64,000 nt of DNA, taken from the NCBI GenBank assembly GCA_026988515.1, contig JALSLA010000069.1:3289-67288 (forward strand). The letters run 5' to 3'. The translations under genes and the position numbers were made by a program. Source of the DNA: Helicobacteraceae bacterium. Its GTDB lineage: Bacteria; Campylobacterota; Campylobacteria; Campylobacterales; Sulfurimonadaceae. Positions 850 to 63,084 of this stretch are shown in pieces. The stretch's first letter is position 1, and every line of letters begins with the position of its first letter. Under the pieces are notes generated by a model that saw only the letters and a list, made by a program, of their open reading frames with translations, searched no databases and had not been told where the DNA came from.

Positions 850-1527
850 GTGGCAGAGAAACAGGCAGTATGTATTATGAGCGGTGGTATGGATTCGACA
901 CTTGCGGCATACCTGATGAAGGAAGATGGGTACGATATTATCGGGATACATTTTAGTTACGGACAACGAACGGAGTTTAAAGAGCATACGGCATTTCATG
1001 CGATTTGCGACCATTTACATGTCACGAAGCGTTATGTGCTTCCGTTGGAGTTTTTTAAAGATATAGGTGCTTCTTCTTTGACCGACACTACTGTTTCTGT
1101 GCCGACAGAAGGTATTGAACCGGGTGTTCCTACCACGTATGTTCCTTTTCGAAACGGTATTTTTCTAAGCATTGCCGCTGCTATTGCCGAAAAAGAAGGT
1201 GCCGAAGTGTTGAGTATCGGAGTGGTTGAAGAAGACAGTAGCGGCTATCCTGACTGTACGAAAGTATTTATTGAAAGCATGACACAAAGCATTAATTTAG
1301 GAACCAAAGCATCGACTAAACTACAGATTGCAATGCCGTTGGTTACACTTAAAAAAGAGGAGATTGTTGCAAAAGCACTTCAACTAGAGGTACCGCTTCA
1401 TTTAACATGGAGCTGCTATCAGAATGACACAGTGGCGTGCGGCGTGTGTGATAGTTGTCGTTTGCGACTCAAAGGCTTTGCATTAGCCAATATATTGGAT
1501 CCGATACCGTATGAAACGGCTACTTAA
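850..1527 (+). CDS. queC: 7-cyano-7-deazaguanine synthase QueC
   Basis: SGGMDS PP-loop near the N-terminus. C-terminal WSCY...CGVCDSCRLR zinc cluster. The 225 aa length fits QueC. Confidence 0.9.
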   Translation: MAEKQAVCIMSGGMDSTLAAYLMKEDGYDIIGIHFSYGQRTEFKEHTAFHAICDHLHVTKRYVLPLEFFKDIGASSLTDTTVSVPTEGIEPGVPTTYVPFRNGIFLSIAAAIAEKEGAEVLSIGVVEEDSSGYPDCTKVFIESMTQSINLGTKASTKLQIAMPLVTLKKEEIVAKALQLEVPLHLTWSCYQNDTVACGVCDSCRLRLKGFALANILDPIPYETAT

Positions 1528-2161
1528 ACATCCGCGCTTCCCTATTGTTTACCACTATAAACCGCGACAGAAACATACCTACATTGCTATAGAAAGCGAC
1601 GGTACGGTCTGTATTCGCACTCCTATCAGCAATATGGACTTTCTTGAAACGATAGTACGTGAAAAAGAGCATTGGATCATACAGCAACTCGAAAATATGG
1701 CACAACATGAACAGGCTGTTTTGGGTGAAACATTCTATTATTTGGGAGTACTGCACACTATGGACTCTCGTGTCGCAAAACCGCTTAAAGAAGCCATCTC
1801 CCGGTTACGATCTGTGGAGCCTAGGAAGTTGCAGCACTGTTATGATCTCTTTTACAAGCAGGCATGCGCATACTACATACCGCAGCGTATAGCTTATTTT
1901 TCAGATATGATGGGGCTCTACCCCAAAATGGTCAGCTATAGAAAAATGAAACGGCGCTGGGGAAGTTGTGATGCCAACAAACAGCTAACCTTTAACAGCG
2001 CTGTTATGAAGCTTTCAGTAGAGCAAATTGACTATATTGTCGTACATGAATTGGCACATATTAAACATATGAATCATTCTGCAGTATTTCACCGTCTGGT
2101 ACAGCAGTATTGCAGTGAGGCACGTTCAATCGAAGAGAGCCTTCGTCGATTACGTCCGTGA
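1511..2161 (+). CDS. YgjP-like (DUF45 / M48-related) metal-dependent hydrolase
   Basis: RWGSC motif followed by IDYIVVHELAHIKHMNHS (HExxH), as in the YgjP/DUF45 family. Confidence 0.8.
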   Translation: MKRLLKHPRFPIVYHYKPRQKHTYIAIESDGTVCIRTPISNMDFLETIVREKEHWIIQQLENMAQHEQAVLGETFYYLGVLHTMDSRVAKPLKEAISRLRSVEPRKLQHCYDLFYKQACAYYIPQRIAYFSDMMGLYPKMVSYRKMKRRWGSCDANKQLTFNSAVMKLSVEQIDYIVVHELAHIKHMNHSAVFHRLVQQYCSEARSIEESLRRLRP

Positions 2162-4130: not shown

Positions 4131-4140
4131 GACAACTCCT

Positions 4141-5157
4141 TTAGATGGCAAATGTTAACTGTTTTGGATGCTTCTCATGTTCGAGCATCGCTTTTAACGA
4201 ATGGTGATGCAACAGTAGCACAAAATTGAATGCTAACGTCCGTAACTGTCCGATAAGCTCATGAGAGTTCTCGTAAGTTAGATAGACAACATTATCATAT
4301 TTTTTAATATTAATATGTGAAGGCGTAAGTACTATGATGGTTGCCCACGACGCTTTCGTCGTTAAAAACGTGAGTGCTTCATTAAACAACGTGTCATCAT
4401 TTTGAAAAATAATAACACGTTCCGTACTGCCAAAAGGTCGACACTGTAAGCTTCGGTTGACAAATAGCGGTTCGAAATGGTGCAGTGAAGAGAGTCTTTG
4501 TATGAGATACGGGATGCGCTCTCTTTTTAAAAAGTTAAGTACTTTTTCCAGATAGGGGAGTAGCCATGGTGCCATACGTATACGCTCGTAATAACGTCCG
4601 TCAAAAATAAAGCTGCTTTCAAATAAGGAGTTCTCTAATACGCTCAGTGCATGCAGTGTTGAAAATTGTAGTGATTTACATGCGGGAATGAGAGAGATTA
4701 TTTGCGTAAGTTTTGTATCGATTAGCAGCAGGGAGTGTTCCATGGCGCGGTTGATGACATGGATCATTGCATCTAAATGATTTGAATGCAGTGTGATCAG
4801 GGTATCGTTGTTGTGTAGTAATGCGATCAGATCCAAATAGATAGTGTCGCACGATCGTATGTTTACATGTAGATGCAGTAGCTGATGGCGTAATATTTTT
4901 TGAACGGCTTGATATACACTGTCGACGCGTATCCATGCAATCTCATGGTCGGTAATAAGCATGTCACTCTCATAGAGCAGGGCATAGGCTCCTTTGGAAA
5001 CGGCTTCGTCAATAGCGTGTATATTGTTATTGGTGACAATGAAAAGGTCGCCCCGCGTCACCTCATGCGCATGGCACGCAATATTGAAATACTCTTTAAC
5101 ACTGGGATTGTTCTCTAAGGTACCAAATGTGAGTGAAACAACATTGTCAATGAGCAT
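4141..5157 (-). CDS. hypothetical protein (weak resemblance of N-terminus to Mur-ligase/MurF domain 1, no P-loop)
   Basis: Long uninterrupted ORF packed between metG and the TRAP gene. N-terminus has ...EVTRGDLFIV...AIDEAVSKGAYALLY...WIRVDSVYQAVQKIL. No GxxGK[ST] motif is seen. Confidence 0.5.
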   Translation of the reverse strand: MLIDNVVSLTFGTLENNPSVKEYFNIACHAHEVTRGDLFIVTNNNIHAIDEAVSKGAYALLYESDMLITDHEIAWIRVDSVYQAVQKILRHQLLHLHVNIRSCDTIYLDLIALLHNNDTLITLHSNHLDAMIHVINRAMEHSLLLIDTKLTQIISLIPACKSLQFSTLHALSVLENSLFESSFIFDGRYYERIRMAPWLLPYLEKVLNFLKRERIPYLIQRLSSLHHFEPLFVNRSLQCRPFGSTERVIIFQNDDTLFNEALTFLTTKASWATIIVLTPSHINIKKYDNVVYLTYENSHELIGQLRTLAFNFVLLLHHHSLKAMLEHEKHPKQLTFAI

Positions 5158-8653: not shown

Positions 8654-8665
8654 CCTACATGTAAA
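8654..8665. repeat. copy of iterated palindrome (CCTACATGTAAA)
   Basis: Read directly. Lies in the mobB/lipoprotein divergent intergenic region and abuts the mobB Shine-Dalgarno (TACATGTAGGAA on the minus strand). Confidence 0.9.
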
Positions 8666-10941: not shown

Positions 10942-11961
10942 ATGCATATTTTAGTAACCGGAGGAGCGGGGTATATTGGTTCGCATGTTGTCAAACAGCT
11001 TATTGAAACGACAACGCACCGTATTTCTATTTTAGACAATCTTTCAACCGGACACCGAAGTACTGTCGATACGCTTAATCAAATAGCACGTGATAAAGGA
11101 AGCCGTAAGGGTATCACCTTTTATCATGAAGATTTGAAGCATTTCGATACGATTAAAAAAATTTTTGAAACAGGCTCTTTTGATGCCGTTATGCATTTTG
11201 CTGCCAGCATTGTTGTTCCGGAGTCTGTTGAAAATCCGCTAAAATATTATATGAATAATACGGTCAATACAACGCATCTCATTCAGTTATGCACTGCTTA
11301 TAATGTCAAACATTTTATTTTTTCCTCGACCGCAGCAGTGTATGGAGAACCCAATGAGCCTCAGGTGACCGAAACCACACGTACGTTACCCATTAATCCC
11401 TACGGCAGAAGTAAGCTTATGAGCGAACAGGTTTTACAGGATGCAACCCAAGCTCATAAAGATTTTTCACATGTTATATTGCGCTATTTTAATGTAGCCG
11501 GAGCAGATATTCATAACCGTATCGGTCAAAGTTTTCCCAATGCCACACACCTTATCAAAGTCGCAGCTCAAACAGTCATAGGTTCTCGTGAGAACATGAT
11601 GATATTTGGTGATGACTATGCAACGCCCGACGGTACATGTATTCGTGACTATATTCATGTCGATGACCTGGCATCGGCACATTTGAGAGCACTGGAGTAT
11701 TTAGAGGAGGGGAGGGATTCTTCTGTTTTTAATGTCGGTTACGGACACGGTTACAGTGTCAAAGAAGTTGTGCTCACCATGAAAGAGGTCAGCAATACGG
11801 ACTTTAGTGTATTGATGGCACCGCGGCGTGCCGGTGATCCGGCAGTACTTATTTCCAATAACAGCAAAATCAAATCGGTACTGCGCTGGAGCGCACAATA
11901 TGATGATTTGGCACTTATTTGTCAAACGGCATTGGCATGGGAACGAACAGTACAGAACTAA
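10942..11961 (+). CDS. galE: UDP-glucose 4-epimerase
   Basis: TGGAGYIGSH Rossmann motif, YGRSK (YxxxK) catalytic motif, 339 aa. Confidence 0.9.
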   Translation: MHILVTGGAGYIGSHVVKQLIETTTHRISILDNLSTGHRSTVDTLNQIARDKGSRKGITFYHEDLKHFDTIKKIFETGSFDAVMHFAASIVVPESVENPLKYYMNNTVNTTHLIQLCTAYNVKHFIFSSTAAVYGEPNEPQVTETTRTLPINPYGRSKLMSEQVLQDATQAHKDFSHVILRYFNVAGADIHNRIGQSFPNATHLIKVAAQTVIGSRENMMIFGDDYATPDGTCIRDYIHVDDLASAHLRALEYLEEGRDSSVFNVGYGHGYSVKEVVLTMKEVSNTDFSVLMAPRRAGDPAVLISNNSKIKSVLRWSAQYDDLALICQTALAWERTVQN

Positions 11962-14164: not shown

Positions 14165-14176
14165 TTTACATGTAAA
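14165..14176. repeat. perfect copy of iterated palindrome TTTACATGTAAA
   Basis: Read directly. Intergenic, upstream of the TetR operator cluster. Confidence 0.9.
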
Positions 14177-15567: not shown

Positions 15568-16464
15568 ATGACTCTTTTATTGGCACTAAGTTCTGCACTA
15601 TTGTTTGGTATTGCCATAGGACTCTATATACATGTAAAACGAATCAAACAAGAAAACCATACACTGACAACAAAAATAGCACAACTCGAAGAAAGAGATC
15701 AGGATTGTAATATTCAAGATGAAGAACTTTTCTATCAGTCACGATTGGCACAGATGGGAGAGATGATCAGTATGATTGCACATCAATGGCGTCAACCGCT
15801 GAGCGCCATATCGTTAACGGCTATAGGGTTGGAAACAAAAATACGCTTAAAAAAGTTTGATTTTTCAACTCCTGAACATATTCAAGAAGCGGAACAGTAC
15901 ATTTTAGGACGTACTGAGTTAATAGCGCAATATGTCAGCTCTATGACAACTACGATTGATGACTTTCGGATGTTTTATAAAAAAGATCGCCAAAAAGAGT
16001 TGGTTGCCATTGAAGATATTTTGGATCGAGCACTTAAAATTATCGGGGTTACTTTAGAGGCCCAAAACATCGAAATTCAGATGATATGCAACGCTCACCG
16101 TAACGTGTGGCTGTTTCCCAATGAATTGGTTCAGGTATTTTTAAATCTGTTACAAAATGCTCAAGATCAGTTTGTGACCAAGGGTATTTCACCGGCAAAA
16201 ATCACCATTCGTGCTCACGATACTGACGATGGTATTGAGGTAGCGTTTTGTGATAATGCCGGTGGAATTGACGCTGCAATTATTACAAAAATATTTCGTC
16301 CCTATTTCTCAACGAAAGAGAAACAAAACGGCACGGGATTAGGACTGTATATGAGTCAGATCATTATAGACGAGCACCATAAGGGGCGATTGCGTGCCTG
16401 TAATACCGATAATGGAGACGGTAGCTGCTTTAGTGTTTTTTTACCCACAGGATCTAAAGAGTAG
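15568..16464 (+). CDS. membrane-anchored sensor histidine kinase (HQWRQPL-type)
   Basis: One N-terminal TM, coiled coil, H-box MISMIAHQWRQPLS, N-box LLQNAQDQ, G-boxes CDNAGGID and GTGLGLYMS. Paralog of the 12161 kinase. Confidence 0.8.
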   Translation: MTLLLALSSALLFGIAIGLYIHVKRIKQENHTLTTKIAQLEERDQDCNIQDEELFYQSRLAQMGEMISMIAHQWRQPLSAISLTAIGLETKIRLKKFDFSTPEHIQEAEQYILGRTELIAQYVSSMTTTIDDFRMFYKKDRQKELVAIEDILDRALKIIGVTLEAQNIEIQMICNAHRNVWLFPNELVQVFLNLLQNAQDQFVTKGISPAKITIRAHDTDDGIEVAFCDNAGGIDAAIITKIFRPYFSTKEKQNGTGLGLYMSQIIIDEHHKGRLRACNTDNGDGSCFSVFLPTGSKE

Positions 16465-18528
16465 TTGATGGTTAATATTGACGAACTGTTACTCTATACA
16501 TCAGAATTAACCCTCTTGTATGTTGAAGATGATCCGATGATTCAAGAGCGTAATTGTGAAATCTTTTCGGATTTTTTCCACCAAGTGGATCTTGCTACCA
16601 ATGGCAAAGAAGGGTATGAGCGGTATGAGCACTATTACGAACATACCCATACGTTTTACGACCTGGTTATTACCGATATCCAGATGCCGACAATGGATGG
16701 TATTGCCATGAGTCAGTTAATTCAAAAACGGCATGCCCACCAGATGCTTATTGCGCTCTCTGCACATCAAGATGCCCACTATCTTTTTGAACTTATCAAT
16801 ATGGGAATTACCTACTTTTTACCTAAACCTGCATCTACGGAAGCACTTTACGACATACTCTTTAAAACGTCAAAAATTGTCTATGACCGCAAAGCTGCCG
16901 ATGCGTATTCCAAAAAGTTGATTCTACTCAACAGGAAACTTGAAGACAACGTCATTGAGCTGGAAAATGCCATGCATAAAGCCGAAGAAGCTGCAGCATT
17001 TAAGGATCGTTTTTTTGCCAATATGAGTCATGAAATACGCACGCCCATGAATGCCATACTCGGACTCAGTCATATCCTTCTGGCATCCCCGTTAAAAGAA
17101 AAAGAGCGACAAAATGTTTTAAAAATAGAAAATGCCGCCAATGTATTGCTTCAAATTATTAATAATATTTTAGATTTTTCAAAAATTGAGTCGGGAAAAC
17201 TTACGCTTGAATCAACAGAATTTACGCTGAGCTCGGTGATTGGTTATATTGCAACCATCGTTGATATTAAAGCTGCCCATAAAAATATCTCCATTGTCTA
17301 CAATATCGATCAGCAGATACCAAAATATCTCATTGGTGACCCTACCCGTTTAGGGCAGATACTTCTGAATCTTGTTGACAATGCCGTGAAGTTCACACAT
17401 GAAGGCAGTGTTATTTTACATGTAAATCAACTTGAAAAAGAGCGTGAACGCTGTGTACTGAAATTTGATGTCATTGATCACGGTATTGGCATAGAAGAAG
17501 AAAAAATTGAGACACTTTTTGACTCTTTTGTTCAGGCAGACAGTAGTACTACACGAGAATACGGCGGTTCCGGACTCGGTCTAAGCATCACAAAGTATTT
17601 AGTAGAAATGATGGGCGGAACGATTTCCATATGCAGTCATAAATCTCAAGGGAGTACCTTTAGTGTGGTGCTCCCTTTATCATATACCGACAAAAGCCAC
17701 CGGTCATCACATCACCCTGCCCGCAGCAATGCGGATATCTCCGGCATTGTACTGCAGGACAAAACAGTCTTGCTGGTAGAAGATAATGAGGTCAATCGCC
17801 ATGTCATTTTAGGATTACTGGAGCGAAGCGGGGCAAAAATTCTTATTGCGACCGACGGTGCCGAAGCGTTAGAGATAGCAGAAACAGAAAAAACGGATTT
17901 AATATTAATGGATATTAATATACCGATTATGGATGGCTATGAAGTGACTCGAGCCATTCGAAAGAACCTCAATACGGTGCCAATCATAGGTTTAAGTGCC
18001 AACACCATGCGTAAAGATATGACCAAAGCACTTGATGCGGGAATGAATGCATACCTGTACAAGCCTATGGATATACAACGGTTCTATCGACTCCTTTCAG
18101 AGTATATTGACGGTGCCGTGTTACATTTTAAGCAGGAGAAGGCAACATCTGTGTCTGTTATTGCCAACCACCCGTTCTGCACAATTTCCGGATTGGATGT
18201 TGCCGATGCTCTGGAGCGTATGGAGTATAATGTAGTACTTTATGAGCGTGTTGTACACTCCTTTTTTACAATGTTTGCCAATGCTGCCGAAACGCTACAG
18301 GAGTATATTGTTCATGAAAAATATGATGAAGCGTATCGACTTTGTCATGATATTCAGGGAAGTAGTGGTAATATTGGTGCAAAAGAACTCTATGCGGTTA
18401 CTAAAAATATGGAACAGATGCTTACATTGCATCAGCGAGATACGGCACTGCAACAGGTGCAGCGTTTTTCTCAAGCATTTGAGGAGCTTGCCCGCTTGGT
18501 TTCAGATACACTGAAGAAAGATGACTAA
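16465..18528 (+). CDS. hybrid histidine kinase: REC - HisKA - HATPase_c - REC - HPt
   Basis: N-terminal receiver (YVEDD...VITDIQMPTMDG...LPKP), H-box FFANMSHEIRTPMN, HATPase (NLVDNAVKFT, DHGIGI, GGSGLGLSI), second receiver (LVEDNEVN...ILMDINIPIMDG...YLYKP), HPt (CHDIQGSSGNIGA). The start could be the ATG at 16468. Confidence 0.9.
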   Translation: MMVNIDELLLYTSELTLLYVEDDPMIQERNCEIFSDFFHQVDLATNGKEGYERYEHYYEHTHTFYDLVITDIQMPTMDGIAMSQLIQKRHAHQMLIALSAHQDAHYLFELINMGITYFLPKPASTEALYDILFKTSKIVYDRKAADAYSKKLILLNRKLEDNVIELENAMHKAEEAAAFKDRFFANMSHEIRTPMNAILGLSHILLASPLKEKERQNVLKIENAANVLLQIINNILDFSKIESGKLTLESTEFTLSSVIGYIATIVDIKAAHKNISIVYNIDQQIPKYLIGDPTRLGQILLNLVDNAVKFTHEGSVILHVNQLEKERERCVLKFDVIDHGIGIEEEKIETLFDSFVQADSSTTREYGGSGLGLSITKYLVEMMGGTISICSHKSQGSTFSVVLPLSYTDKSHRSSHHPARSNADISGIVLQDKTVLLVEDNEVNRHVILGLLERSGAKILIATDGAEALEIAETEKTDLILMDINIPIMDGYEVTRAIRKNLNTVPIIGLSANTMRKDMTKALDAGMNAYLYKPMDIQRFYRLLSEYIDGAVLHFKQEKATSVSVIANHPFCTISGLDVADALERMEYNVVLYERVVHSFFTMFANAAETLQEYIVHEKYDEAYRLCHDIQGSSGNIGAKELYAVTKNMEQMLTLHQRDTALQQVQRFSQAFEELARLVSDTLKKDD

Positions 18529-19438: not shown

Positions 19439-21217
19439 TTATTCACTTTCTTGTACTGTATTATACCAATAAAATTTAACGCATTGTGATGCTGAATTGT
19501 TATTTTCATGAAACAGTGGCGGTTGTGCCATCCATCGGGTGGTAATACGTTGCGGAGAAACGCCTAAAGCAATGAGTGCATCGGTTACGTTTTGCGCCCT
19601 TTTTTTGGCAATGCGTCTGTTTTGTAACAGATTTTTAGATGGACTCGAATAGCCAATAACACCAAGATGCGTTTGCGGATATTGTTCGAGGTGTGCGGCA
19701 ATGCGTTCAAGCAGTGGTGCATGCTCTTTGTCTATAGCAGATGCCCCGTTTTTAAAATAGAGGCTGTGCTGACGGCTTTTGGTGTATGCAACATTAATAT
19801 AGAGATGTTTAATGGCATCAAGTTCTGTAATAATGTCGGCAGCTTGTTGCAGTCGTTGCGGTGATGTAGCCTCTCCTGTAATGGTAACTGTACCATTGGT
19901 CACATCATACGTGAGATTTGTATAGGGGTCACTATTGAGTACGGCAATTTGCTTGGCAATAAGACGCTTGCTTTTTGCATAATCTTCAAGGGGTTTGAGC
20001 ACTAACACCCTGTTGTCAATGTCATAGGGAAATTTTTTTGTCATGAGCGTATTAAAAAGTTCATCGTTGAGTTTTGCATTCGGAACTTTTCCCTCAATGA
20101 CTAACGTATTGTCCTGCCATGAGGTGCTAATAGCATAAAGTGCTAAATGCGGATTGTTTTGAATGCGCGTTGCGATCATTGCTTGAAAGTGCTCTTTTTT
20201 ATAGTGTGTGTAATAGGACCATGCACCCAAAGTGAGCAACAAGAAAGCAATAATAGCTAAAGGCCATTTGCTGGGAGGCTGATCTTTGGCGGGTTTATGC
20301 TGATTCAATGCAAATAAGGGCGTAAACAACGTTTCAATGTCGTGTGTAGGTATTGATGAGAGATCGCCGTCAAACTCTTGAATGTCAGTAGCATAATGAT
20401 CTAAAATAGCTGTGAGAACCTCATTGGTCGCTGTTACAACGTCTTGTGTGGTTTGTCCGTCGAGAAGAACGGCCAAATAAGAGTGCCCTGAAGATTCCAG
20501 ATAGATTTTAGATTCACCGTAGTTAATCTCATTGACATCACGAAACTGCTCTTGCTGATGAATCCAGTTGTTAATGAAATCTGTCAGTGCCGTTAACATG
20601 GAACCGACCATTTCGGGTTCATTAATGTGATTGCCTTTATCGACGCGATGCGCAATAATGGCTCCCATCGGCTTATGAATAAGCAGAACTGCTTTTACAT
20701 GTACGGGTAAGGACTCATAAAGCAATAGTTCCGCCTCATCAATTCCTTGTACTTTTGCCTGTATTTTTCGTTTAATATTTTGAATGCTTAAGCCGTGTTG
20801 TATTTTTGCATTAATATCATTCATCATATCTTGTAGCATTTGAGAAACATATTTGGAGATCATGCCGCCGACTACCGGATACAAAAGATCGGAAACATCC
20901 TCTTTGTGGGTGATTGTATAGTTGTGCAACTCTCGGTAAATGAGTGGGGATATTTTTTTAATGACCGGCTCATACGATGCTTTGGAACCATGTTCTACCA
21001 AAGTATTCAGGGCACAAACTACGGCATGTTCAAACGCTGCATGTTCTTGTGTTGATGCGTCAACAAGCATCTTGGAGAAATGCGGTGCAATATGTTCAAT
21101 AAGCCTCTCGGGATACTCCAAACGCTCTTGAAGCTGTTGAAGTTCTGCTTCTATATGTGCTACCGATCGGAGTTCATCTCCTAAAAGTAACTGCCTGAGC
21201 CGTTCAAGTTCACTCAT
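19439..21217 (-). CDS. multidomain envelope protein: cytoplasmic N-terminal region, one TM helix, two BON-like segments, C-terminal OmpA/MotB-like peptidoglycan-binding domain
   Basis: TM WPLAIIAFLLLTLGAWSYY. BON-like LVIEGKVPNAKLNDELF and VTITGEATSPQRLQQAADIITELDAIKHLYINV. OmpA-like LYFKNGASAIDKEH...GVIGYSSPSKNLLQNRRIAKKRAQNVTDALIALGVSPQRI. Confidence 0.75.
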   Translation of the reverse strand: MSELERLRQLLLGDELRSVAHIEAELQQLQERLEYPERLIEHIAPHFSKMLVDASTQEHAAFEHAVVCALNTLVEHGSKASYEPVIKKISPLIYRELHNYTITHKEDVSDLLYPVVGGMISKYVSQMLQDMMNDINAKIQHGLSIQNIKRKIQAKVQGIDEAELLLYESLPVHVKAVLLIHKPMGAIIAHRVDKGNHINEPEMVGSMLTALTDFINNWIHQQEQFRDVNEINYGESKIYLESSGHSYLAVLLDGQTTQDVVTATNEVLTAILDHYATDIQEFDGDLSSIPTHDIETLFTPLFALNQHKPAKDQPPSKWPLAIIAFLLLTLGAWSYYTHYKKEHFQAMIATRIQNNPHLALYAISTSWQDNTLVIEGKVPNAKLNDELFNTLMTKKFPYDIDNRVLVLKPLEDYAKSKRLIAKQIAVLNSDPYTNLTYDVTNGTVTITGEATSPQRLQQAADIITELDAIKHLYINVAYTKSRQHSLYFKNGASAIDKEHAPLLERIAAHLEQYPQTHLGVIGYSSPSKNLLQNRRIAKKRAQNVTDALIALGVSPQRITTRWMAQPPLFHENNNSASQCVKFYWYNTVQESE

Positions 21218-26157: not shown

Positions 26158-26624
26158 TCGCTTAGCGCTTCAGAATTTTGCAGTAACGAAAGGTTTAAAA
26201 CGTGATGCTCTGTGATCACAGTTTTAAACTCTCCTTCAAATACTTTAATCTCCGAGCTGTAGCCTTTTACATGTACATTACGCTTGCGCCCCTCTTTGTG
26301 ACGTACTTGTGCTTCAAAGATGACGCTGTCTCCGACGCGAACCGGTGCTAAAAATTGGCAGGTGCTTGCAGCAAGAACAACATTTTTGTCATTGACGGCA
26401 CTCATAGCGGCAAAATCGGCGGCACTAAAAATAAAACCGCCGTGAACCAAACCGGCCTCGTCGGCCCGCATCTCTTCGGTAGTACTTAAAACAATCTTGG
26501 CATACCCTTTTTGCAGCACCTCAATGTCGCCGCTGAGTGCCTGATTGATTTTTAGGTGTGTTTGAAGCTGGATCTCTTCGTGTGCATTAGATGCTTCTGT
26601 ATGACTCTGTTCTTCATCGGACAC
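26154..26624 (-). CDS. hotdog-fold (PaaI/4HBT-like) thioesterase
   Basis: GLVHGGFIFSAADFAAMSAVN motif and about 150 aa size. Confidence 0.7.
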   Translation of the reverse strand: MSDEEQSHTEASNAHEEIQLQTHLKINQALSGDIEVLQKGYAKIVLSTTEEMRADEAGLVHGGFIFSAADFAAMSAVNDKNVVLAASTCQFLAPVRVGDSVIFEAQVRHKEGRKRNVHVKGYSSEIKVFEGEFKTVITEHHVLNLSLLQNSEALSD

Positions 26625-38053: not shown

Positions 38054-38065
38054 TTTACATGTAAA
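38054..38065. repeat. perfect copy of iterated palindrome TTTACATGTAAA
   Basis: Read directly. Lies 16 nt after the radA stop and 30 nt before the next ATG. Confidence 0.9.
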
Positions 38066-40867: not shown

Positions 40868-40879
40868 ATTACATGTAAA
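40868..40879. repeat. copy of iterated palindrome (ATTACATGTAAA)
   Basis: Read directly. Lies in the divergent intergenic region, 13 nt before the ATG at 40892. Confidence 0.9.
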
Positions 40880-43465: not shown

Positions 43466-43477
43466 ATTACATGTAAA
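43466..43477. repeat. copy of iterated palindrome (ATTACATGTAAA)
   Basis: Read directly. Lies 25 nt after the dapD stop. Confidence 0.9.
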
Positions 43478-43847: not shown

Positions 43848-45147
43848 TTGTACGGGGCTCTTGTGTAATAATATTCATGCTCTCTAAATTTTTCAAATGG
43901 GCATACTGAGGATCATAGTCAGGTTGTTCTTTGCCAAGATCCAGCGTACTAATAACAGTTTTACCAATAATTTTTCTACCGGAAATACCATTATTGAGTG
44001 TACGAACTCCCCATGTATCGTGAAATACCATAATTTTCCCCTTGTAGACTCCCAAATAGAGCAACACGTGACCACGTCGATAAAGAATCGTTTCAAAAGG
44101 TACTCCCTCAGCAATAATACGCTCGCGTTTGCGGTGTTTATTGAGTCCTTTCAAGGAGATCACCCGCCCTATATTAGCCTGTTTTGATGAGTTGCGTGGT
44201 AACCATATGCCAAAAGAAGCAAAAAGATCCCGTAACGTCGAAGAGCAGTCGCGTTCTTCATAGAGACCGCCCCAGCCGTATTTTCTGCCAATAAGTTGGT
44301 TTAAAAGAAGTACCATATTTTCTCTGGTAAGACGCATTGTACCACAGTGGACTGAAGTACGCGGTATTACGCTATGGACCAAACTCTTTTCATGATAGAC
44401 CGAAACCGTAACGTGCGTACCATTCATATCATGGTAGGGCAGCATCATACCAATGCGCGCATACGTTAGAAAGGTACCGTTACTGTCATGAAGTGGAAAG
44501 TGCTCATGCGTTACATGTAAAAATTTATTGGCTTCATAAGATTGTGTTGCTTCTTGAGTCAGCAATGTTATGTTGTGGCGGCGAACCCAACCGCTGGCAT
44601 AGGAAGTAAAAACATAAACCCACGCACCGTCTTTAGAGTAGTGTGATACAAAAAGCGGCTCATTGGAATGAATACCCGAGTTTTGCATGTAATCAAAAGG
44701 AAAACCCTCCCCTGCTTTTAAAGGATTGCTAAAAAGTGGTTTATGAGTCGGAAATGCACGTAAGTGTGTAAAATGTCGTGTTATAGCGTAACGATTCACG
44801 CTCCCGAAGCTATCAAAATTAGCCTGCTGTGCCATTGTGGAAAACCATGAGGGATCAATAGGCAGCAGGTTTTCTCCATAGCTTTCTGAAGCCTTGTAAC
44901 GTCTGAATGCCCACATGGCTTCAAATTTTGCAACAGGAGGTTCACTCATGTGCCATGGAGTAAAGTAGGCTTTCTTGTAGTGCCGCTGCAGTGCTAAGAG
45001 CTCCTTTTTTGGCTGCATATTTTCTATGTAAACACGGCTTTCTTGGGCATAGTTAAGCAAGTCGGCAACAGGTGTGCTGCTTTTTTTACAAGAGCAGCCT
45101 CCGAATATAAGAATAAGAGAAAAAAAGACAAACAGCTGCTTTTTCAA
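43837..45147 (-). CDS. NlpC/P60 (C40) cell-wall peptidase lipoprotein with N-terminal SH3-like region
   Basis: Lipobox IFGGC. C-terminal YGWGGLYEERDCSSTLRDLF (catalytic Cys) and RGHVLLYLG (His). TTG start overlaps the upstream stop (TTGA). Confidence 0.75.
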   Translation of the reverse strand: MKKQLFVFFSLILIFGGCSCKKSSTPVADLLNYAQESRVYIENMQPKKELLALQRHYKKAYFTPWHMSEPPVAKFEAMWAFRRYKASESYGENLLPIDPSWFSTMAQQANFDSFGSVNRYAITRHFTHLRAFPTHKPLFSNPLKAGEGFPFDYMQNSGIHSNEPLFVSHYSKDGAWVYVFTSYASGWVRRHNITLLTQEATQSYEANKFLHVTHEHFPLHDSNGTFLTYARIGMMLPYHDMNGTHVTVSVYHEKSLVHSVIPRTSVHCGTMRLTRENMVLLLNQLIGRKYGWGGLYEERDCSSTLRDLFASFGIWLPRNSSKQANIGRVISLKGLNKHRKRERIIAEGVPFETILYRRGHVLLYLGVYKGKIMVFHDTWGVRTLNNGISGRKIIGKTVISTLDLGKEQPDYDPQYAHLKNLESMNIITQEPRTITP

Positions 45148-45811: not shown

Positions 45812-45823
45812 CCTACATGTAAA
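45812..45823. repeat. copy of iterated palindrome (CCTACATGTAAA)
   Basis: Read directly. On the minus strand it abuts the repressor gene's Shine-Dalgarno: TTTTACATGTAGGAGAGCGCAATG. Confidence 0.9.
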
Positions 45824-49722: not shown

Positions 49723-49734
49723 TTTACATGTAAT
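49723..49734. repeat. copy of iterated palindrome (TTTACATGTAAT)
   Basis: Read directly. Intergenic between the leuD start and the flgG stop. Confidence 0.9.
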
Positions 49735-56234: not shown

Positions 56235-57098
56235 ATGTATAATTTTTTATATATGAAACGTTCGCTCAGTGCTTTATTTCTCGCCATCATTGTACATGTA
56301 GTGTTACTACTGCTTTTTATTACCCTGCTCTTTTTGCTTCCTTCGGCACCTAAAACACTACCGCAAAAAGAGAAACGCATCAAAGTGTCACTCAAAGAGC
56401 GTCCTCAGGTCAAACATGATGCCCTTGTTAAGAACAACAAACCTGTCGTTAAGGCACCTGCACTTCCCAAAGGAAAGCAGCTTAAGAAGCTTATTGAAAA
56501 ACCGCTTATCCCTGTCAGCAACACTCTAACCAAGCCCGCAAAACGTCCCGAAACACCGCCTGAAAAAGTCGTTTCAAAACCGCCGAAACCAAAACCGCTA
56601 CCCTCGATTAAACCCTATATTACGGTACCGGAAAAATCGGATATTGCACCACCGAAGCCTTCAAGTTTGTACGATGTACTCTCCACACCCTCCATAACGC
56701 CGAAACCTAAAAAGAGTGTATCGCAACAGCATTACAGTCGCATCAACCAGGATATTCAAGAACTCTACGGCGATACGTTTGCCAAACTGAGCAAAGGAGA
56801 ACAAAAATATATTCTTGATAATCAGGAAATCATGCGGCGTATTACCCAAAAAGTACTCAACCGTGTCGGCAGCGTCAATCTAAAAAATAATTTACATGTA
56901 AATGCCGGCAATGTTGTCGAGTTCTATCTCTACCCCAACGGAGATATCAGCAATATACGCTTGATCCAAAAAAGCGGTTACTACATTTTAGACCGAACCA
57001 CCCAAGAGACCATTGAGTATGCTTACGCCAAGTATCCACGGCCGGAACAAAAGACACTCATTCGCTACAAAGTCGGCTACTATTTGAGAAGATACTAA
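56235..57098 (+). CDS. TonB-family energy transducer
   Basis: N-terminal TM, Pro/Lys-rich spacer (KPPKPKPLPSIKP), C-terminal TonB_C-like domain (GNVVEFYLYPNGDISNIRLIQKSG...LD). Confidence 0.7.
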   Translation: MYNFLYMKRSLSALFLAIIVHVVLLLLFITLLFLLPSAPKTLPQKEKRIKVSLKERPQVKHDALVKNNKPVVKAPALPKGKQLKKLIEKPLIPVSNTLTKPAKRPETPPEKVVSKPPKPKPLPSIKPYITVPEKSDIAPPKPSSLYDVLSTPSITPKPKKSVSQQHYSRINQDIQELYGDTFAKLSKGEQKYILDNQEIMRRITQKVLNRVGSVNLKNNLHVNAGNVVEFYLYPNGDISNIRLIQKSGYYILDRTTQETIEYAYAKYPRPEQKTLIRYKVGYYLRRY

Positions 57099-57101: not shown

Positions 57102-57926
57102 ATGGACTTTTTTCAAACACTTCAAACCCTTCTGCTTGCGTCCACACCTCATGAAAAAATCAAAGGTTTCAACGCATTTTATACTTACTACTGCAACAGC
57201 AACGAAACAGTACGGCATTCGCATAAGCAACCCATCCGATTTACAGCACCTTCATATGCGTCGTATTGTCATATGGTACCGCCACAACAGGTACCGCGAC
57301 GCAAAAACCTTCAAAGTACCGAAGGACAAATTGCACTGGTGCATGCTGTTGCGCATATTGAATACAGCGCTATTGATTTAGCCCTTGATGCCGCCTACAG
57401 ATTTCAGAACCTGCCACAACGTTTTTATGACGACTGGCTTGAAGTAGCAGATGAGGAAATCCGCCACTTTCAAATGTTGGAGACCATTTTGCATGATCTT
57501 GGCAGCTACTACGGCGATCTTAGCGTTCACAATGCACTCTTTGAAGCACAAGAACGCACGGCACACTCTCTGTTACACCGTATGGCAGTCGTACCACGCT
57601 ATTTAGAAGCCAACGGTCTGGATGCAACCCCGCAGATTATTGAAAAACTGCAACGTCTTCCCCGGCATGATCGGCTCACACAGATTATAGAGGCACTGCG
57701 AGTTATTGTCGATGAGGAGATTGATCATGTCCGTAAGGGTGACTACTGGTTTGGTTATGCTTGTACACTTGAAGAGGTTAGCAAAGCGTGTTACTTCGAT
57801 ATTGTCAAGCTCTATTATCCCAATACATTTCAAAAGCCTCGACATATTAATGTCAACGGACGCAAAGCTTCGGGATTTACATGTAACGAACTTAAGCAAT
57901 TGACACAGCGACATATATGCGACTAA
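57102..57926 (+). CDS. DUF455 ferritin-like domain protein
   Basis: ALVHAVAHIEYSAIDLALDA ... DEEIRHF ... VVPRYLEANGLD ... DEEIDHV, a di-iron-like ExxH pattern typical of DUF455. Confidence 0.7.
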   Translation: MDFFQTLQTLLLASTPHEKIKGFNAFYTYYCNSNETVRHSHKQPIRFTAPSYASYCHMVPPQQVPRRKNLQSTEGQIALVHAVAHIEYSAIDLALDAAYRFQNLPQRFYDDWLEVADEEIRHFQMLETILHDLGSYYGDLSVHNALFEAQERTAHSLLHRMAVVPRYLEANGLDATPQIIEKLQRLPRHDRLTQIIEALRVIVDEEIDHVRKGDYWFGYACTLEEVSKACYFDIVKLYYPNTFQKPRHINVNGRKASGFTCNELKQLTQRHICD

Positions 57927-60238: not shown

Positions 60239-60249
60239 TTACATGTAAA
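60238..60249. repeat. copy of iterated palindrome (ATTACATGTAAA)
   Basis: Read directly. It fills most of the 20-nt gap between the convergent S8 protease and tamB stops. Confidence 0.9.
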
Positions 60250-60258
60250 TACGTGTTC

Positions 60259-63084
60259 TTACGGTTTTTCAGTTATGCTATGTTGTCGAAAGGGATCACG
60301 AAGGTCTTTCACATAAATAAGATTGATCCCCTGCCCTGTCTCTTTAACATCCACGTCAAGGCGTAGCCAGCGGTTTAATTTGTACTGCATAACGGCACTG
60401 AACTTGGCGTCGTTTTTCAATAATATACGCAACTTTTCACTCACCTGAGTCCCCACTTCAAAACCCAATGCGCCACTCTCACTGCTTAGTATATTTAACG
60501 TATCAACATGAATACCGGTGGTATCGCCAATCATTTTTTTCAACCCCATCCCTAAAATGAGATTGGCGGCGCTGGCACCACTCAACTCCTCACCGCCCTC
60601 AAATGCCGAGTTTGCCGGCGTACCAAAAATGAGATAGCTCATAATATCATTTTGGCTCATAGAGGGTGTCGCACTAAAAAGAACAACCGGATCTTCCATG
60701 GTGTTGGTCACATAGATATGAATTTTTTTATAATCGATTTCGCGTAAAATATTGAGATCCAAATAGGGATTAATCGGTGTATCGCCACCAAAATAGACTT
60801 TACTCTGACTGATCTCATAACGTTTGTCGCTTAAGCGAGCTTCTCCGCTTTCAATGGTTGCCATACCCAGTATAACCAATGCCCCGTTGGGTTCTTTCCA
60901 TAACGTAATATCAGGAACTATCGTTGCATGAATATCGTGTGCATTGTAACGCAGTGGATGTTCTGCCGTTATGTGTACATTGATAAAAAGGTCTGAGCTT
61001 TGCGGCTCGCGTACATCTTGAATAATAATAATATCATCATCACGCATAAGGTAACTCTTGCTCGGATAGTAGGTGACCTCTCCTTCTAGAACGTTGACGC
61101 TGCCCTCCACGCTCAAATTTCCTGCTCCATCAGAGAGCAAAGCAATGTCTACGGCAGCGCGCAGATCTCCTTCGGGACCTTTATAGTGAAATGCTTTGCC
61201 GTAAAGGCGCATGTCCATATGACCGCTTTGGCTCTCATACAGACCGGTGAGCTGTAGCGTATCGTAGATCCACAATCTGTCTACATGTAAATTATGTGCT
61301 GCGTCGAGAAAAAATTTGGAATCACGGTTGGCATACACGCGGTGACCCAAAAGGCTCACATTGTACTCATCAAGTGTAATATAGCGGTTAAACAGACGTA
61401 CTTTCATCGTGGAGTTGTGCCCAAAGTTAATGGTTTGCGAATCTTGCTGTGCGACATACCATGGAATCTTAAGCTCACTTTCAACGCTTATATCATCATC
61501 AATGGTTACCGTCGTGCGTGCATCGAGTTCAGCATCGTAATACTCAAATTTATTATAATGCAGCGGCCTAATGGAGTTAATCAGCTCATAAAGTGATGCA
61601 ATATGGTTATTTACATGTAAAACCGTACGTGTCGTGTGATGTACCCCTTCAATATCGAAACGGCTGCTTTTGTAGCTTCCCCAGCCATTAAGACGCTCGG
61701 CACGCTTAAAAAGTGTGACATAGACCTCATGAGAGCGTAAGGCCAGCATCCCTTCATCGGCACGGTTATAGTGAGCAACAAAACTGATGGGAAAAATATT
61801 GTGTGTGCTGATACCGTTCCATTCTGCTGCATGATGGTCTGCATCAATACGCCCCTGTGCCAATAATTGGGCACCGTCGTACTCAAAAGTGCTTTGAAGC
61901 ATGCCTGTGTGATCCCCCAACGTCACTGTGCCGTGTGCTGTTACGGTTGTATTGATGCTTATATTGGCATCTATAGAGGCATTGATATCACGATGCTGCA
62001 GCAGTGGCGGCAGGGAATCGATAAAATCGCCTGAAACCTCTGTTGCTTGAGCATGAAGCACAAATGTTTGCATGTCGCTACTGCTTACGGTTGTGTGAAG
62101 CGCTTGCGTGTCTGAGTGTAGTTCAGCGTAAAGGCTACCCTCAGATGTCAATGCTATTGTCGCGTTATAATCCCTTTCCGGCAGTGTGTAGGGTGTCTGA
62201 TCTACATGTATTGCCATGGTAGATGTTAGATTCCCGTCGAAATCGATACGGAGCTGTTGCGCAACACTTATAGCGGTCTCTTTATGACGCAAGAGATAAC
62301 TGCCGTCTACATCGATGTATGGATTACTATAGTTATAATCAACATTCACAGCGGCATTGTAAATCGAGATGTTTCCTTCACCGTATTGAAGGTGTGGTAT
62401 AGTAGCAGTAGCCTGCAGTCGGGTTGATGAAGCATGTAAAATATTAAGGTTATAGTACAGCGGAATGGTCTGAAACGCTTCTAAATAGGGTTGAAAATAG
62501 CTTTTGTCTAATCTCGTACTGCTTGTACCGCTAAAGACGTTATGTTCCATACTGCCTTGCAGTACCGCTGTTGCATAGCGGGTGGCAATGGTGGCATCAA
62601 TATGCTCTGTATCGACAATACCGTTGTTGTAACGACTGTTTTTAAAGCTACCCTCAATACCTATTGTCTTACTGCCACTTATCAGGGTAATGTCTTGCAG
62701 CACCAGATGCTTTAAGGTAATTGAAGGCAGTGTCAAGGTGTTCGCATTATGTTCGTTTTGCTGTGGTAGCGCATTCAGATCAATCACGGCGTTACGTAAG
62801 CGTAACACATCAACATTGAGGCCGTGGCGCCACAGATGCCATAAATCGAAATTGAGTTCTGCTTCTTGGGCTTTAAAAAGATGTTTATAGCTGACATCGT
62901 CAATACGAAATCCGCTATAGAGTGTTCCTGAGAGTTTGCTGTAGCGGATGTCGCTGTCGTGGAGCGCATAATGCGCTATTGCAGGTAGAACCAAGGGATG
63001 AAAAAGCAACACCACAACAGCAAGCATTACGAGAATAAGAAGAACAAGAAGCGTACGGATCTCTAAGTATATATCGCGGATCAA
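60259..63084 (-). CDS. tamB: translocation and assembly module protein TamB (DUF490 family)
   Basis: N-terminal TM anchor, about 900 aa beta-rich body, C-terminal DUF490-like end (...SAVMQYKLNRWLRLDVDVKETGQGINLIYVKD). Overlaps the upstream Omp85-family gene by 4 nt. Confidence 0.8.
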   Translation of the reverse strand: MIRDIYLEIRTLLVLLILVMLAVVVLLFHPLVLPAIAHYALHDSDIRYSKLSGTLYSGFRIDDVSYKHLFKAQEAELNFDLWHLWRHGLNVDVLRLRNAVIDLNALPQQNEHNANTLTLPSITLKHLVLQDITLISGSKTIGIEGSFKNSRYNNGIVDTEHIDATIATRYATAVLQGSMEHNVFSGTSSTRLDKSYFQPYLEAFQTIPLYYNLNILHASSTRLQATATIPHLQYGEGNISIYNAAVNVDYNYSNPYIDVDGSYLLRHKETAISVAQQLRIDFDGNLTSTMAIHVDQTPYTLPERDYNATIALTSEGSLYAELHSDTQALHTTVSSSDMQTFVLHAQATEVSGDFIDSLPPLLQHRDINASIDANISINTTVTAHGTVTLGDHTGMLQSTFEYDGAQLLAQGRIDADHHAAEWNGISTHNIFPISFVAHYNRADEGMLALRSHEVYVTLFKRAERLNGWGSYKSSRFDIEGVHHTTRTVLHVNNHIASLYELINSIRPLHYNKFEYYDAELDARTTVTIDDDISVESELKIPWYVAQQDSQTINFGHNSTMKVRLFNRYITLDEYNVSLLGHRVYANRDSKFFLDAAHNLHVDRLWIYDTLQLTGLYESQSGHMDMRLYGKAFHYKGPEGDLRAAVDIALLSDGAGNLSVEGSVNVLEGEVTYYPSKSYLMRDDDIIIIQDVREPQSSDLFINVHITAEHPLRYNAHDIHATIVPDITLWKEPNGALVILGMATIESGEARLSDKRYEISQSKVYFGGDTPINPYLDLNILREIDYKKIHIYVTNTMEDPVVLFSATPSMSQNDIMSYLIFGTPANSAFEGGEELSGASAANLILGMGLKKMIGDTTGIHVDTLNILSSESGALGFEVGTQVSEKLRILLKNDAKFSAVMQYKLNRWLRLDVDVKETGQGINLIYVKDLRDPFRQHSITEKP

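Follow-up and report, generated by a model that had tools for sequence, protein, structure and literature searches.

An iterated, HIP1/USS-like octamer palindrome in an uncultured clade of Campylobacterota near Sulfurimonas

The classical DNA uptake sequences of Neisseriaceae (DUS) and Pasteurellaceae (USS) are sharp, short, non-palindromic words with AT-rich flanks and even spacing, found at 0.8-1 per kb in clade 'dialects' with abrupt boundaries; they are enriched between genes and beside terminator hairpins, and within genes they use the least costly frame, with residue changes at tolerant positions. The sites bound by Noc and SlmA, matS and parS, which are read by dimeric HTH proteins, are 12-16-bp palindromes, largely genic, degenerate and regionally biased, and number tens per genome. 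HIP1 (GCGATCGC) and the alternative HIPs are exact 8-bp palindromes with observed/expected ratios (O/E) in the tens and densities of 0.3-2.7 per kb (PMC4390886, PMC5861425); HIP1 has soft palindromic extensions and non-random spacing, lies in coding and non-coding DNA, and is conserved between genomes above background. In Campylobacter jejuni, a methylated palindrome, RAATTY (CtsM), marks the cell's own DNA and gates natural transformation (PMC10046745; discussed in 10.1101/2024.09.10.611283).

Here we describe a 64-kb stretch of core housekeeping DNA (the window) from a genus-level clade of uncultured bacteria close to Sulfurimonas (Campylobacterota; Sulfurimonadaceae), in which the 8-bp palindrome TACATGTA occurs 24 times and represents a HIP1/USS-like element new for the phylum. 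All the properties of HIP1 named above are shared by TACATGTA; unlike HIP1, it is AT-rich with a CATG rather than a GATC/CGATCG core, belongs to another phylum, is confined to one genus-level clade instead of being phylum-wide, is strongly enriched between genes, and has no cognate methyltransferase in the 81.5 kb examined (the window plus 17.5 kb more of the same genome). With DUS and USS it shares the sharp short word, the roughly kilobase density, the even spacing, the dialect-like boundary, the intergenic and hairpin-adjacent placement, the choice of frame and residue and the AT-rich flanks, whereas it is palindromic rather than asymmetric and has about half their density; we know of no ComP-like receptor in Campylobacterota. 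RAATTY, from the same phylum, is a degenerate 6-mer met about every 60 bp without enrichment, whereas the 8-mer had to accumulate. In contrast to the Noc, SlmA, matS and parS sites, TACATGTA is exact and, by extrapolation, present in hundreds of copies.

Abundance and limits of the palindrome

ACATGT occurs 32 times in the window, and 24 of these sites are TACATGTA, which starts one base before its ACATGT core; 12 have the 10-mer TTACATGTAA, five the 12-mer TTTACATGTAAA (at 14165, 17415, 38054, 56891 and 61610), and a single one (56893..56900) the 14-mer form ATTTACATGTAAAT. The counts of the 6-, 8-, 10- and 12-mers and the positions given in the initial annotation proved exact on recount. Just eight ACATGT sites lack the T..A flanks, and the unit is thus the 8-mer, not ACATGT. 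The window has a G+C content of 42.0%, and dinucleotide-preserving shuffles (n = 100) gave an expectation of 0.89 for TACATGTA (maximum 4), 0.15 for TTACATGTAA and 0.01 for TTTACATGTAAA, with none of the 100 shuffles matching the observed 8-, 10- or 12-mer counts. O/E for TACATGTA was ~25 in the window and 16-25 under Markov models of order 1-4, and the original description of a highly iterated palindrome of HIP1 or USS/DUS type withstood these models; at order 5-6 the ratio is near 1 because the 6- and 7-mer counts of a 64-kb sample are the motif copies themselves. No other 8-mer of the window is as frequent as TACATGTA, poly-A/T words included, and 29 sites are found in the 81.5 kb.

The consensus has a sharp edge, as the 24 possible one-mismatch variants of TACATGTA total 14 copies, which is background, and the sites are surrounded by soft palindromic flanks (aTT-TACATGTA-AAt). 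When the window sites were compared, no conserved bases extended beyond ~3 on either side, and a repeat search of the window found no family around them whose real identity exceeds 18 nt, in agreement with the proposal that they are not MITE or IS ends. O/E near 1 and copies lying inside a mobile element, the two findings that the initial annotation held to speak against it, were both looked for and neither was found. TATATGTA and TACATATA are not elevated and a C-to-T deamination halo is missing, which argues against m5C on the core C and leaves m6A or m4C as candidate marks. Dyad symmetry, sharp consensus edge and AT-rich flanks together suggest recognition as duplex DNA, either by a protein that would be symmetric (dimeric) or enzyme-like (methyltransferase, restriction-fold) or by an uptake receptor. 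The core consists entirely of pyrimidine-purine steps and is highly deformable, with AT-rich DNA on both sides. A full-text search for TACATGTA yielded no bacterial report among the matches listed, consistently with the view that the motif was undescribed for this lineage.

Distribution and conservation among relatives

With clade membership defined as RpoD at least 90% identical, TACATGTA was over-represented in all five clade species sampled (O/E 14-36; G+C 36 to 43%). The nearest relatives (L093, L094 and L223, RpoD 85%), which mostly share the clade's gene order around rpoD, had 0 copies in 50.7 kb; 14 other Campylobacterota loci had 0-1 each and 66 distant loci about 0. The clade belongs to the sulfur-oxidising Campylobacterota.

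Conservation in sister genomes had been suggested as a check, and sites were indeed kept well above background 8-mers. In four between-species comparisons, 9/12, 5/12, 6/9 and 2/4 sites were retained, against background 8-mer rates of 0.17, 0.14, 0.09 and 0.11 (p = 1e-5, 0.017, 3e-5 and 0.06, respectively), so that TACATGTA positions were kept 3-7x above other 8-mers. Within the species, conservation was not above background (9/12 vs 0.83; small n). Where [LIV]-H-V was kept, the motif codons were kept too in 11 of 13 cases (manual count).

Placement between and within genes

Nine of the 24 sites are intergenic by the gene map (copies between genes had been reported before, as eight), although intergenic DNA makes up roughly 8% of the window, and eight of these nine are upstream of a gene. 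O/E was 41-76 in intergenic vs 11-20 in coding DNA, and density was about 7-fold greater between genes than within them. Overall, TACATGTA recurs ~1 per 2.7 kb (~0.36 per kb), with spacing more even than that of random placement (CV 0.67 vs 0.95 ± 0.16, P = 0.018).

The intergenic site at 8656..8663 separates divergent genes, 12 nt upstream of a MobB-like start (8644, minus) and 94 nt upstream of a plus-strand gene at 8757, and abuts a GGAA Shine-Dalgarno-like box. The 12-mer site at 14167..14174 is 132 nt upstream of a TetR-family gene at 14306, and that at 38056..38063 lies 18 nt past the radA stop, with the next gene starting 32 nt further on. Of the 10-mer sites, 34815..34822 falls in a 601-bp divergent region between RNase Y (start 34387, minus) and redoxin (start 34989, plus), 40870..40877 separates divergent genes and precedes the MoCF-biosynthesis start at 40892 by 15 nt, and 49725..49732, between an aconitase_C-family gene and flgG, is kept in 4/6 genomes including the most distant, L090 and L092. 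Another, 43468..43475, is 27 nt past the dapD stop, present in 4/4 aligned genomes, and comes immediately after a terminator-like, GC-rich hairpin (TTTCGGG-caggt-CCCGAAA, 43448-43466). The 10-mer site at 60240..60247 sits between the convergent stops of peptidase S8 (60238) and TamB (60259); L087 retains it, and strain L005 reads TACATGCA there. The ninth, 45814..45821, lies in the leader of an S24/LexA-like gene (45144-45803, minus), where it abuts GGAG 11 nt before the start; it is kept in four genomes and missing from L090 and L092. Distances from start codon to TACATGTA range from 11 to 174 nt in no register, and inspection of the flanks gave no consistent -10 or -35 partner.

The other 15 sites lie inside genes, 13 of them in a single frame, xTA-CAT-GTA (Leu/Ile/Val-His-Val), a frame usage of 13:0:2 vs about 0.26:0.27:0.17 expected. 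Leu-His-Val is encoded at 4864..4871 (338-aa CDS with no Pfam match, 4141-5157, minus), 17417..17424 (12-mer; hybrid histidine kinase, 16465-18528, plus), 28115..28122 (322-aa CDS, 27553-28521, plus), 44512..44519 (NlpC/P60, 43837-45147, minus; kept in 5/6 clade genomes), 56893..56900 (12-mer; TonB_C-like CDS, 56235-57098, plus) and, in TamB (60259-63027, minus), 61282..61289 and the 12-mer 61612..61619, each kept in 4/5 genomes. Val-His-Val is found at 20696..20703 (OmpA-domain protein, 19439-21217, minus), 26268..26275 (4HBT thioesterase, 26154-26624, minus) and 56293..56300 (in the same TonB_C-like CDS; kept in 5/5 aligned clade genomes), and Ile-His-Val at 15629..15636 (histidine-kinase-like CDS, 15568-16464, plus), 42462..42469 (dapD, 42245-43441, plus) and 62203..62210 (TamB; this strain only). 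The minority frame, ACA-TGT (Thr-Cys), is used at 11634..11641 (epimerase, 10942-11961, plus) and 57878..57885 (DUF455, 57102-57926, plus; kept in 4/5 genomes).

Thirteen of 20 [LIV]-H-V tripeptides are spelled xTA-CAT-GTA, in minority codons, where about 3% would be expected (estimated from codon frequencies), and the His-Val dipeptide itself shows no enrichment (39 observed against 34 expected). Cross-species alignment showed the motif His to be derived at several sites. At 56893..56900, the reading in L090 and the outgroups is Leu-Arg-Val (CGT/CGG/CGC), and an Arg-to-His replacement therefore created the motif. The dapD gain is limited to this species, relatives having I-D-I, I-T-V, V-E-V or V-N-V; outgroups read I-Y-I, L-H-I or L-F-V at 44512..44519, and V-H-I or F-H-L at 56293..56300. 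At 62203..62210 the conspecific strain L005 reads ATA-CAT-GTG, a single synonymous change from the site, and other species L-N-I, I-E-I or I-T-L, while at 61612..61619 L087 retains L-H-V, spelled TTG-CAT-GTC. Coding copies arise by substitution, with no indels. The clade accumulates and retains TACATGTA, with its soft aTT..AAt flanks, through a force on the DNA itself, whose target is neither protein nor RNA nor a mobile element. The single frame, the residue changes, the ~7-fold intergenic enrichment and the sharp boundary of the genus-level clade go beyond the initial annotation.

Candidate roles of TACATGTA

The initial annotation had named three candidate roles, in uptake, in binding by a very abundant protein and in methylation. 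The data establish this DNA-level force, not its purpose, and selection on a function linked to a methyltransferase or to protein binding would also produce all the features listed. Our leading guess, a tentative one, is that TACATGTA might label DNA as self in natural transformation, and the label may be read by way of methylation. Fragments bearing TACATGTA would be favoured in binding, uptake or recombination, and the mark would be read either directly, as DUS and USS are, or after an orphan methyltransferase has methylated the CATG/ACATGT core, as happens to RA(m6A)TTY in C. jejuni. When such favoured DNA replaced its homologous counterpart, new copies would be fixed where they are tolerated (intergenic DNA, synonymous Leu/Ile/Val-His-Val positions, replaceable residues between aliphatic ones), and existing copies would be held in place in the same way. 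Precedents are the palindrome RAATTY, which when methylated gates the uptake of DNA by C. jejuni (PMC10046745), and HIP1, whose methylation makes transformation of a cyanobacterium more efficient (10.1101/2024.09.10.611283). Several points count against the tag: DUS and USS are not palindromic and are about twice as dense as TACATGTA, sites are no better conserved than background within the species (small n), and, radA aside, the 81.5 kb examined have neither a receptor nor a competence gene cluster nor a DNA methyltransferase.

A possible but rather unlikely alternative to the uptake tag is a HIP1-type element with no uptake role, in which an orphan methyltransferase or a nicking/repair enzyme, acquired at the base of the genus, would recognise the core, and the sites would be made and maintained either by a bias in repair or by selection in favour of methylated marks at regular intervals, as in Elhai's model for HIP1; such marks could serve strand discrimination or the timing of replication or repair. 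The exact 8-bp palindrome, sharp consensus, even spacing, O/E of 14-36 and density are in its favour, as TACATGTA falls within the HIP range (300-2700 per Mb, O/E 55-228 or lower; PMC4390886) and is conserved within and between ORFs as HIP1 is (PMC5861425). The abrupt genus-level appearance fits the gain of one gene, yet the 81.5 kb examined hold no methyltransferase gene, and the deamination halo is absent. Moreover, neutral repair bias alone would hit all DNA alike and predicts no such positional conservation, an argument that Xu et al. reportedly made for HIP1; to our knowledge, Campylobacterota have no established methyl-directed mismatch repair, which also counts against this reading, and H. 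pylori is without MutS1 and MutL.

It is doubtful that the sites form a binding array for an abundant dimeric chromosome-organising protein, nucleoid-associated or ParB/Noc/SlmA-like. The palindrome with its AT-rich flanks and deformable pyrimidine-purine core, the even spacing, the conservation between species, the ~7-fold intergenic enrichment and the presence of sites both within and between genes, as for NBS, SBS and matS, would all suit such a protein, and the half-site ATTTACA presumably resembles parS and the Noc-binding site in its TTT-NNN|NNN-AAA geometry. Known Noc, SlmA and MatP arrays, however, are 10-30x smaller than the roughly 700-900 sites per genome extrapolated here, and real arrays are usually degenerate, whereas one-mismatch variants of TACATGTA stay at background.

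An operator or promoter of a global transcription factor, such as the neighbouring LexA-like S24 repressor, with coding copies being incidental, is already disfavoured and most improbable. The intergenic share of the sites, their position upstream of genes and the copy before the S24 gene would agree with it, and TTAC..GTAA presumably resembles some LexA boxes, but the 15 genic sites, at 11-20x expectation, are conserved and made by codon and residue changes, start-codon distances lack register, no consistent -10/-35 accompanies them, L090 and L092 have no TACATGTA at the S24 gene, and this gene retains another, conserved inverted repeat (TATTGCA-N17-TGCAATA) in every species, also in those that lack the motif.

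Remnants or targets of a tiny mobile element, or a compositional or codon-usage artefact, for which an identical 18-mer (AATTTACATGTAATTTTT) common to two intergenic copies could be cited, are refuted by flanks conserved over no more than ~3 nt, by coding copies made by substitution without indels, by O/E of 16-25 under Markov orders 1-4, by outgroups and other AT-rich Campylobacterota that lack the motif, and by its presence in independent NCBI, ENA, JGI and Logan assemblies.

Abundance, shape and setting of the octamer

A recount of the palindromic octamer TACATGTA and its 10-mer and 12-mer extensions in the window (64 kb, 42.0% G+C) reproduced exactly the counts and coordinates of the initial annotation, with 32 ACATGT, 24 TACATGTA, 12 TTACATGTAA and 5 TTTACATGTAAA. 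At 24 copies per 64 kb (375 per Mb), TACATGTA was the top-ranking 8-mer by count in the window, above the poly-A/T words, and dinucleotide-preserving shuffles gave expected copy numbers of 0.89 for the 8-mer (maximum 4), 0.15 for the 10-mer and 0.01 for the 12-mer. The excess, which had originally been gauged against base composition alone, outlasted Markov correction, with an observed/expected ratio (O/E) of 16-25 at orders 1-4; the ratio moved towards 1 at orders 5-6 only because a sample of this size draws its 6- and 7-mer counts from the motif copies themselves.

Only eight ACATGT in the window lacked the T..A flanks, and the unit is therefore the octamer; its 24 possible single-mismatch variants amounted to 14 copies altogether, which is the background level. 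Avoidance of the bare hexamer was considered and rejected, eight unflanked ACATGT per 64 kb being close to the low frequency in most outgroups (1-5 per 16-22 kb; the outgroup L223 had 6 in 12.5 kb). Outside the octamer the preference was softer and again palindromic (a-T-T before TACATGTA, A-A-t after it), and no conservation was seen beyond about 3 nt when the flanks of the window sites were compared. TACATGTA is a perfect palindrome whose core consists entirely of pyrimidine-purine steps (TA-CA-TG-TA), and this core with its AT-rich flanks is highly deformable. The longest context common to any pair of sites was an identical 18-mer, AATTTACATGTAATTTTT, found at two intergenic sites (34811-34828 and 49721-49738); this AT-rich stretch may simply mirror the flank preference.

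Nine sites were intergenic, in about 8% of the window (binomial P = 6e-5), with an O/E of 41-76 compared with 11-20 in coding sequence, and no intergenic spacer held more than one. Over the 81.5 kb of source genome covered, 29 sites (0.36 per kb) were spaced more evenly than under random placement (CV 0.67 vs 0.95 ± 0.16, P = 0.018), with a minimum gap of 330 bp, and no paired copies of TACATGTA were found. Seven nucleotides past the dapD stop, at 43448-43466, lies a GC-rich hairpin (TTTCGGG-caggt-CCCGAAA), followed at once by a TTACATGTAA site with no T-run; this terminator-like arrangement recalls the DUS/USS sites that lie beside terminators, and the site at 43468 was the only one adjoining a hairpin.

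The window is ordinary core chromosome (metG, a gltX-like gene, radA, RNase Y, rpoD, flgG, dapD, leuB, bamA/tamB), also carrying genes of two-component systems and a single tRNA-Glu. It contained no mobile element and no restriction-modification system, and neither the window nor the 81.5 kb of source genome had a DNA methyltransferase. RpoD, 83-85% identical to that of named species, placed the genome in Campylobacterota beside Sulfurimonas and Thiomicrolovo, within an uncultured clade (90-99%) represented solely by metagenome-assembled genomes (MAGs). Separately, positions 30379-32726 (minus strand) and their neighbours form a conserved three-gene cluster of a RimB-like peptidase, a 7TM inactive transglutaminase (RloB-like, NF052267) and an ATP-grasp protein, an osmotic-stress-type module that is unrelated to TACATGTA.

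Range among relatives and turnover of sites

We compared the rpoD neighbourhood of relatives, in which gene order is largely the same, using about 20 kb per relative. Within the species (RpoD 99-100%, G+C 43%), TACATGTA occurred 9-12 times per 21.8 kb, with an O/E of about 25. Four other species of the clade (RpoD 96, 95, 91 and 90%; G+C 36-42%) carried 9, 5 and 7 copies per ~21 kb and 4 per 11.8 kb, respectively, corresponding to O/E values of 14-36, and TACATGTA was the top palindromic octamer of the locus in all but one of the five clade species. The three nearest outgroups (L093, L094 and L223; RpoD 85%, G+C 49-51%) had none in 50.7 kb, 14 other Campylobacterota loci (RpoD 64-91%, G+C 28-52%) had 0-1 each, and 66 distant loci of lower RpoD identity and various G+C had about 0. 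TACATGTA is thus present at RpoD identities of at least 90% and gone at 85%; it is an innovation at the level of the genus, sharply bounded and independent of base composition.

Other over-represented words did not share this behaviour. Candidate "dialects" in sister lineages (CGATATCG in the locus L008, and other palindromes) were without strong over-representation after Markov correction. The runner-up palindromic octamer of the window, ATGCGCAT, had seven copies (1864, 5065, 29321, 37289, 43758, 47003 and 55490) at an O/E of about 5, all within CDS, in mixed frames and with no enrichment in relatives; chance or a minor effect is the probable cause of its excess. The non-palindromic words CAAAGAG(C) and ATTTTAGA/TCTAAAAT were over-represented (O/E 5-9) in the window, in the clade loci L087, L088, L090 and L092, and in L093 and L094; both were discarded as DNA motifs, since they occur in a single frame and in sense orientation, as codon effects of xxC-AAA-GAG (Lys-Glu) and ATT-TTA-GAx (Ile-Leu-Asp/Glu), respectively.

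When six clade loci were aligned with MAFFT (between-species nucleotide identities to the window, 0.68-0.78), many TACATGTA sites occupied the same column in 4-5 genomes, and the intergenic sites 43468, 45814 and 49725 were common to four. Conserved sites numbered 9/12, 5/12, 6/9 and 2/4, against background 8-mer conservation of 0.17, 0.14, 0.09 and 0.11 (binomial p = 1e-5, 0.017, 3e-5 and 0.06, in the same order); conservation thus exceeded background within and between ORFs, as the criterion for HIP words has it. Sites also turn over. Lineage-specific gains were seen at 42462 and 62203 (window species), 62608 (L090), and 42360 and 46807 (L092), and the conspecific strain L005 (97.4% identical, one divergent strain only) lacked 3 of 12 sites, replaced for example by TACATGCA and CACATGTA, and had no extra ones.

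The word is a young example of its kind, being found in every sampled clade member and absent from the three sister genomes that have most local gene order in common with them. Since those genomes lack TACATGTA despite the shared gene order, the cognate gene should be findable by presence/absence comparison. In practice, genetic tools for sulfur-oxidising Campylobacterota could benefit from TACATGTA, and as a signature it could help to bin, or assign to a host, the MAGs and mobile elements of the clade.

Imprint on codons and residues

Fifteen of the 24 sites (63%) lie in CDS, 13 of them read as xTA-CAT-GTA (Leu/Ile/Val-His-Val), two as ACA-TGT (Thr-Cys) and none as TAC-ATG-TAy, compared with a codon-frequency expectation of 0.26 : 0.17 : 0.27. 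The motif spelling was used by 13 of 20 [LIV]-His-Val tripeptides, with the minority codons TTA, CTA, ATA and GTA, whereas we estimate from codon frequencies that chance would produce it in about 3%. The His-Val dipeptide was found 39 times against 34.4 expected, 15 of these being CAT-GTA; given this lack of enrichment, protein-level selection for Leu-His-Val, or a protein motif, was ruled out.

Comparisons between species pointed in the same direction. By our count, where [LIV]-H-V was kept, the motif spelling was kept as well in 11 of 13 cases. DapD has I-H-V in the window species where relatives have I-D-I, I-T-V, V-E-V or V-N-V, and in TamB I-H-V stands in place of L-N-I or I-E-I. A TonB-like gene encodes L-H-V in motif-bearing species and L-R-V (CGT/CGG/CGC) in L090 and the outgroups, and, judging from such alignments, Arg-to-His replacements created motif sites. 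The birth of sites can be observed, both in these replacements and in tamB of the conspecific strain, which reads ATA-CAT-GTG, one synonymous step short of the motif. An exact 8-bp word with dyad symmetry is made and kept, wherever it costs little, by a positive force at the DNA level, and in Campylobacterota such a force can alter housekeeping proteins (dapD, tamB) in both codons and residues.

Known hyper-abundant words and candidate functions

Hyper-abundant words are rare, and the well-studied ones (HIP1, DUS and USS) have a long history and a wide distribution within their lineages, which makes their origin, and for HIP1 the function as well, hard to get at. For HIP1, the question of how such words are born has been standing for thirty years. 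The initial annotation had likened the sites to all three. HIP-class words are exact palindromic octamers that exceed expectation tens of times, occur hundreds of times per Mb, are conserved between genomes and have soft palindromic extensions (PMC4390886, PMC5861425), and TACATGTA shares each of these features. The class is further marked by a cognate, orphan DNA methyltransferase that recognises the core; the 81.5 kb of source genome contained none. TACATGTA differs from HIP1 proper, which is the cyanobacterial GCGATCGC, in its sequence, in its phylum (Campylobacterota) and in its range, and the window's list of over-represented 8-mers does not include GCGATCGC. With DUS/USS it has in common that it is an abundant, evenly spaced, clade-specific short word with the same population-genetic footprint; however, DUS/USS are asymmetric and often form inverted pairs as terminators, whereas TACATGTA is palindromic and unpaired. 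DUS/USS also bias DNA uptake or transformation and have a specific receptor. TACATGTA thus belongs to the HIP-type phenomenon but is not HIP1, and it lacks the asymmetry of DUS/USS. The best-ranked literature matches contained no report of TACATGTA as a bacterial genomic motif, and those listed for competence or uptake sequences in Sulfurimonas and for ACATGT methylation held nothing relevant.

Because the symmetry is exact and the consensus sharp, we infer that TACATGTA is read on duplex DNA by a symmetric or enzyme-like protein. Our leading reading, offered tentatively, is that the word may be a self-DNA tag for natural transformation: fragments carrying it would be preferentially taken up or recombined, and TACATGTA would accumulate. 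Such a tag would account for the boundary at the clade, for sites spaced evenly on the kilobase scale and placed where they cost least, for the imprint on the proteome, and for conservation together with turnover. Classical DUS and USS, which are asymmetric and denser than TACATGTA, speak against it. Campylobacterota are noted for natural transformation and for methylated palindromes that mark their own DNA. C. jejuni offers a precedent within the phylum, taking in only DNA with methylated palindromic RAATTY (PMC10046745); in this type of gating an orphan methyltransferase modifies the palindrome. In Synechococcus PCC 7002, methylated HIP1 raises transformation (10.1101/2024.09.10.611283).

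Taken further, and with considerable doubt, TACATGTA could be a HIP/USS-type element of independent and recent origin, born at the root of a single genus in a lineage other than cyanobacteria, Neisseriaceae and Pasteurellaceae. It would then be the first sequence-specific self-DNA transformation tag in Campylobacterota to combine a palindromic form with hyper-accumulation. If that is true, the cognate reader or writer would give a handle on the birth of such words.

A methyltransferase-linked repair or marking process of HIP type (PMC4390886) is a somewhat unlikely alternative to the uptake tag. We consider it a little less likely again that the sites are an array bound by a nucleoid protein or by one resembling ParB/Noc; the half-site geometry of TACATGTA is like that of parS and NBS. 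No excess of TATATGTA or TACATATA was found, which argues against m5C at the core C. That a global regulator binds them is improbable: 63% of sites lie in CDS, and distances to start codons range over 11-174 nt with no fixed register, unlike a transcription-factor regulon. A mobile element or artefact can be dismissed, the same sequence being present in independent assemblies (NCBI MAGs, ENA, JGI, Logan), so that the window is not an assembly artefact, and the possibility raised initially of copies embedded in a longer mobile element (MITE, REP or small repeat), which would share a unit of at least 20-30 nt with terminal repeats and lie mostly outside genes, giving way before flanks that are random past ~3 nt, real identity around the sites that exceeds 18 nt in no repeat family, and 15 of 24 copies in-frame within genes without indels.

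Several narrower identities were rejected as well. A promoter element, with TTTACA as -35 or TGTAAA as extended -10, had no consistent partner hexamer or register in the flanks; a Chi/KOPS-type polar word is incompatible with a palindrome, which cannot be strand-polar; and an RNA motif is contradicted by a palindrome that is the same on either strand and by sites that occur in genes of both orientations as well as between convergent ones. An operator of the LexA-like S24 repressor was excluded, since TACATGTA is absent there in L090 and L092 and a different inverted repeat is conserved. This repeat, TATTGCA-N17-TGCAATA, precedes the S24/LexA-like gene (45144-45803, minus strand) at ~45850-45885, overlaps a TTGACA/ATGACA-like box, and is kept in all species, including outgroups without TACATGTA, at the same position in L087, L088, L090, L092, L093 and L094. 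It probably acts as the repressor's operator and promoter; we know of no binding motif described for a LexA-like repressor in Campylobacterota.

Searching viral contigs with ATTTACATGTAAAT gave at least 120 matches, those listed being chance-like single hits, and none of the contigs listed reached host-like density. The unrelated viral contig L148 (IMGVR_UViG_3300025301_001295, 52% G+C) carried at 10583-10830 five TACATGTA, four of them with TTTACATGTAA-like flanks, and many further ACATG repeats, in a non-coding stretch of ~250 bp next to terminase genes. The array looks like a cos/pac or operator-type array, and the palindrome would evidently be read by some phage protein.
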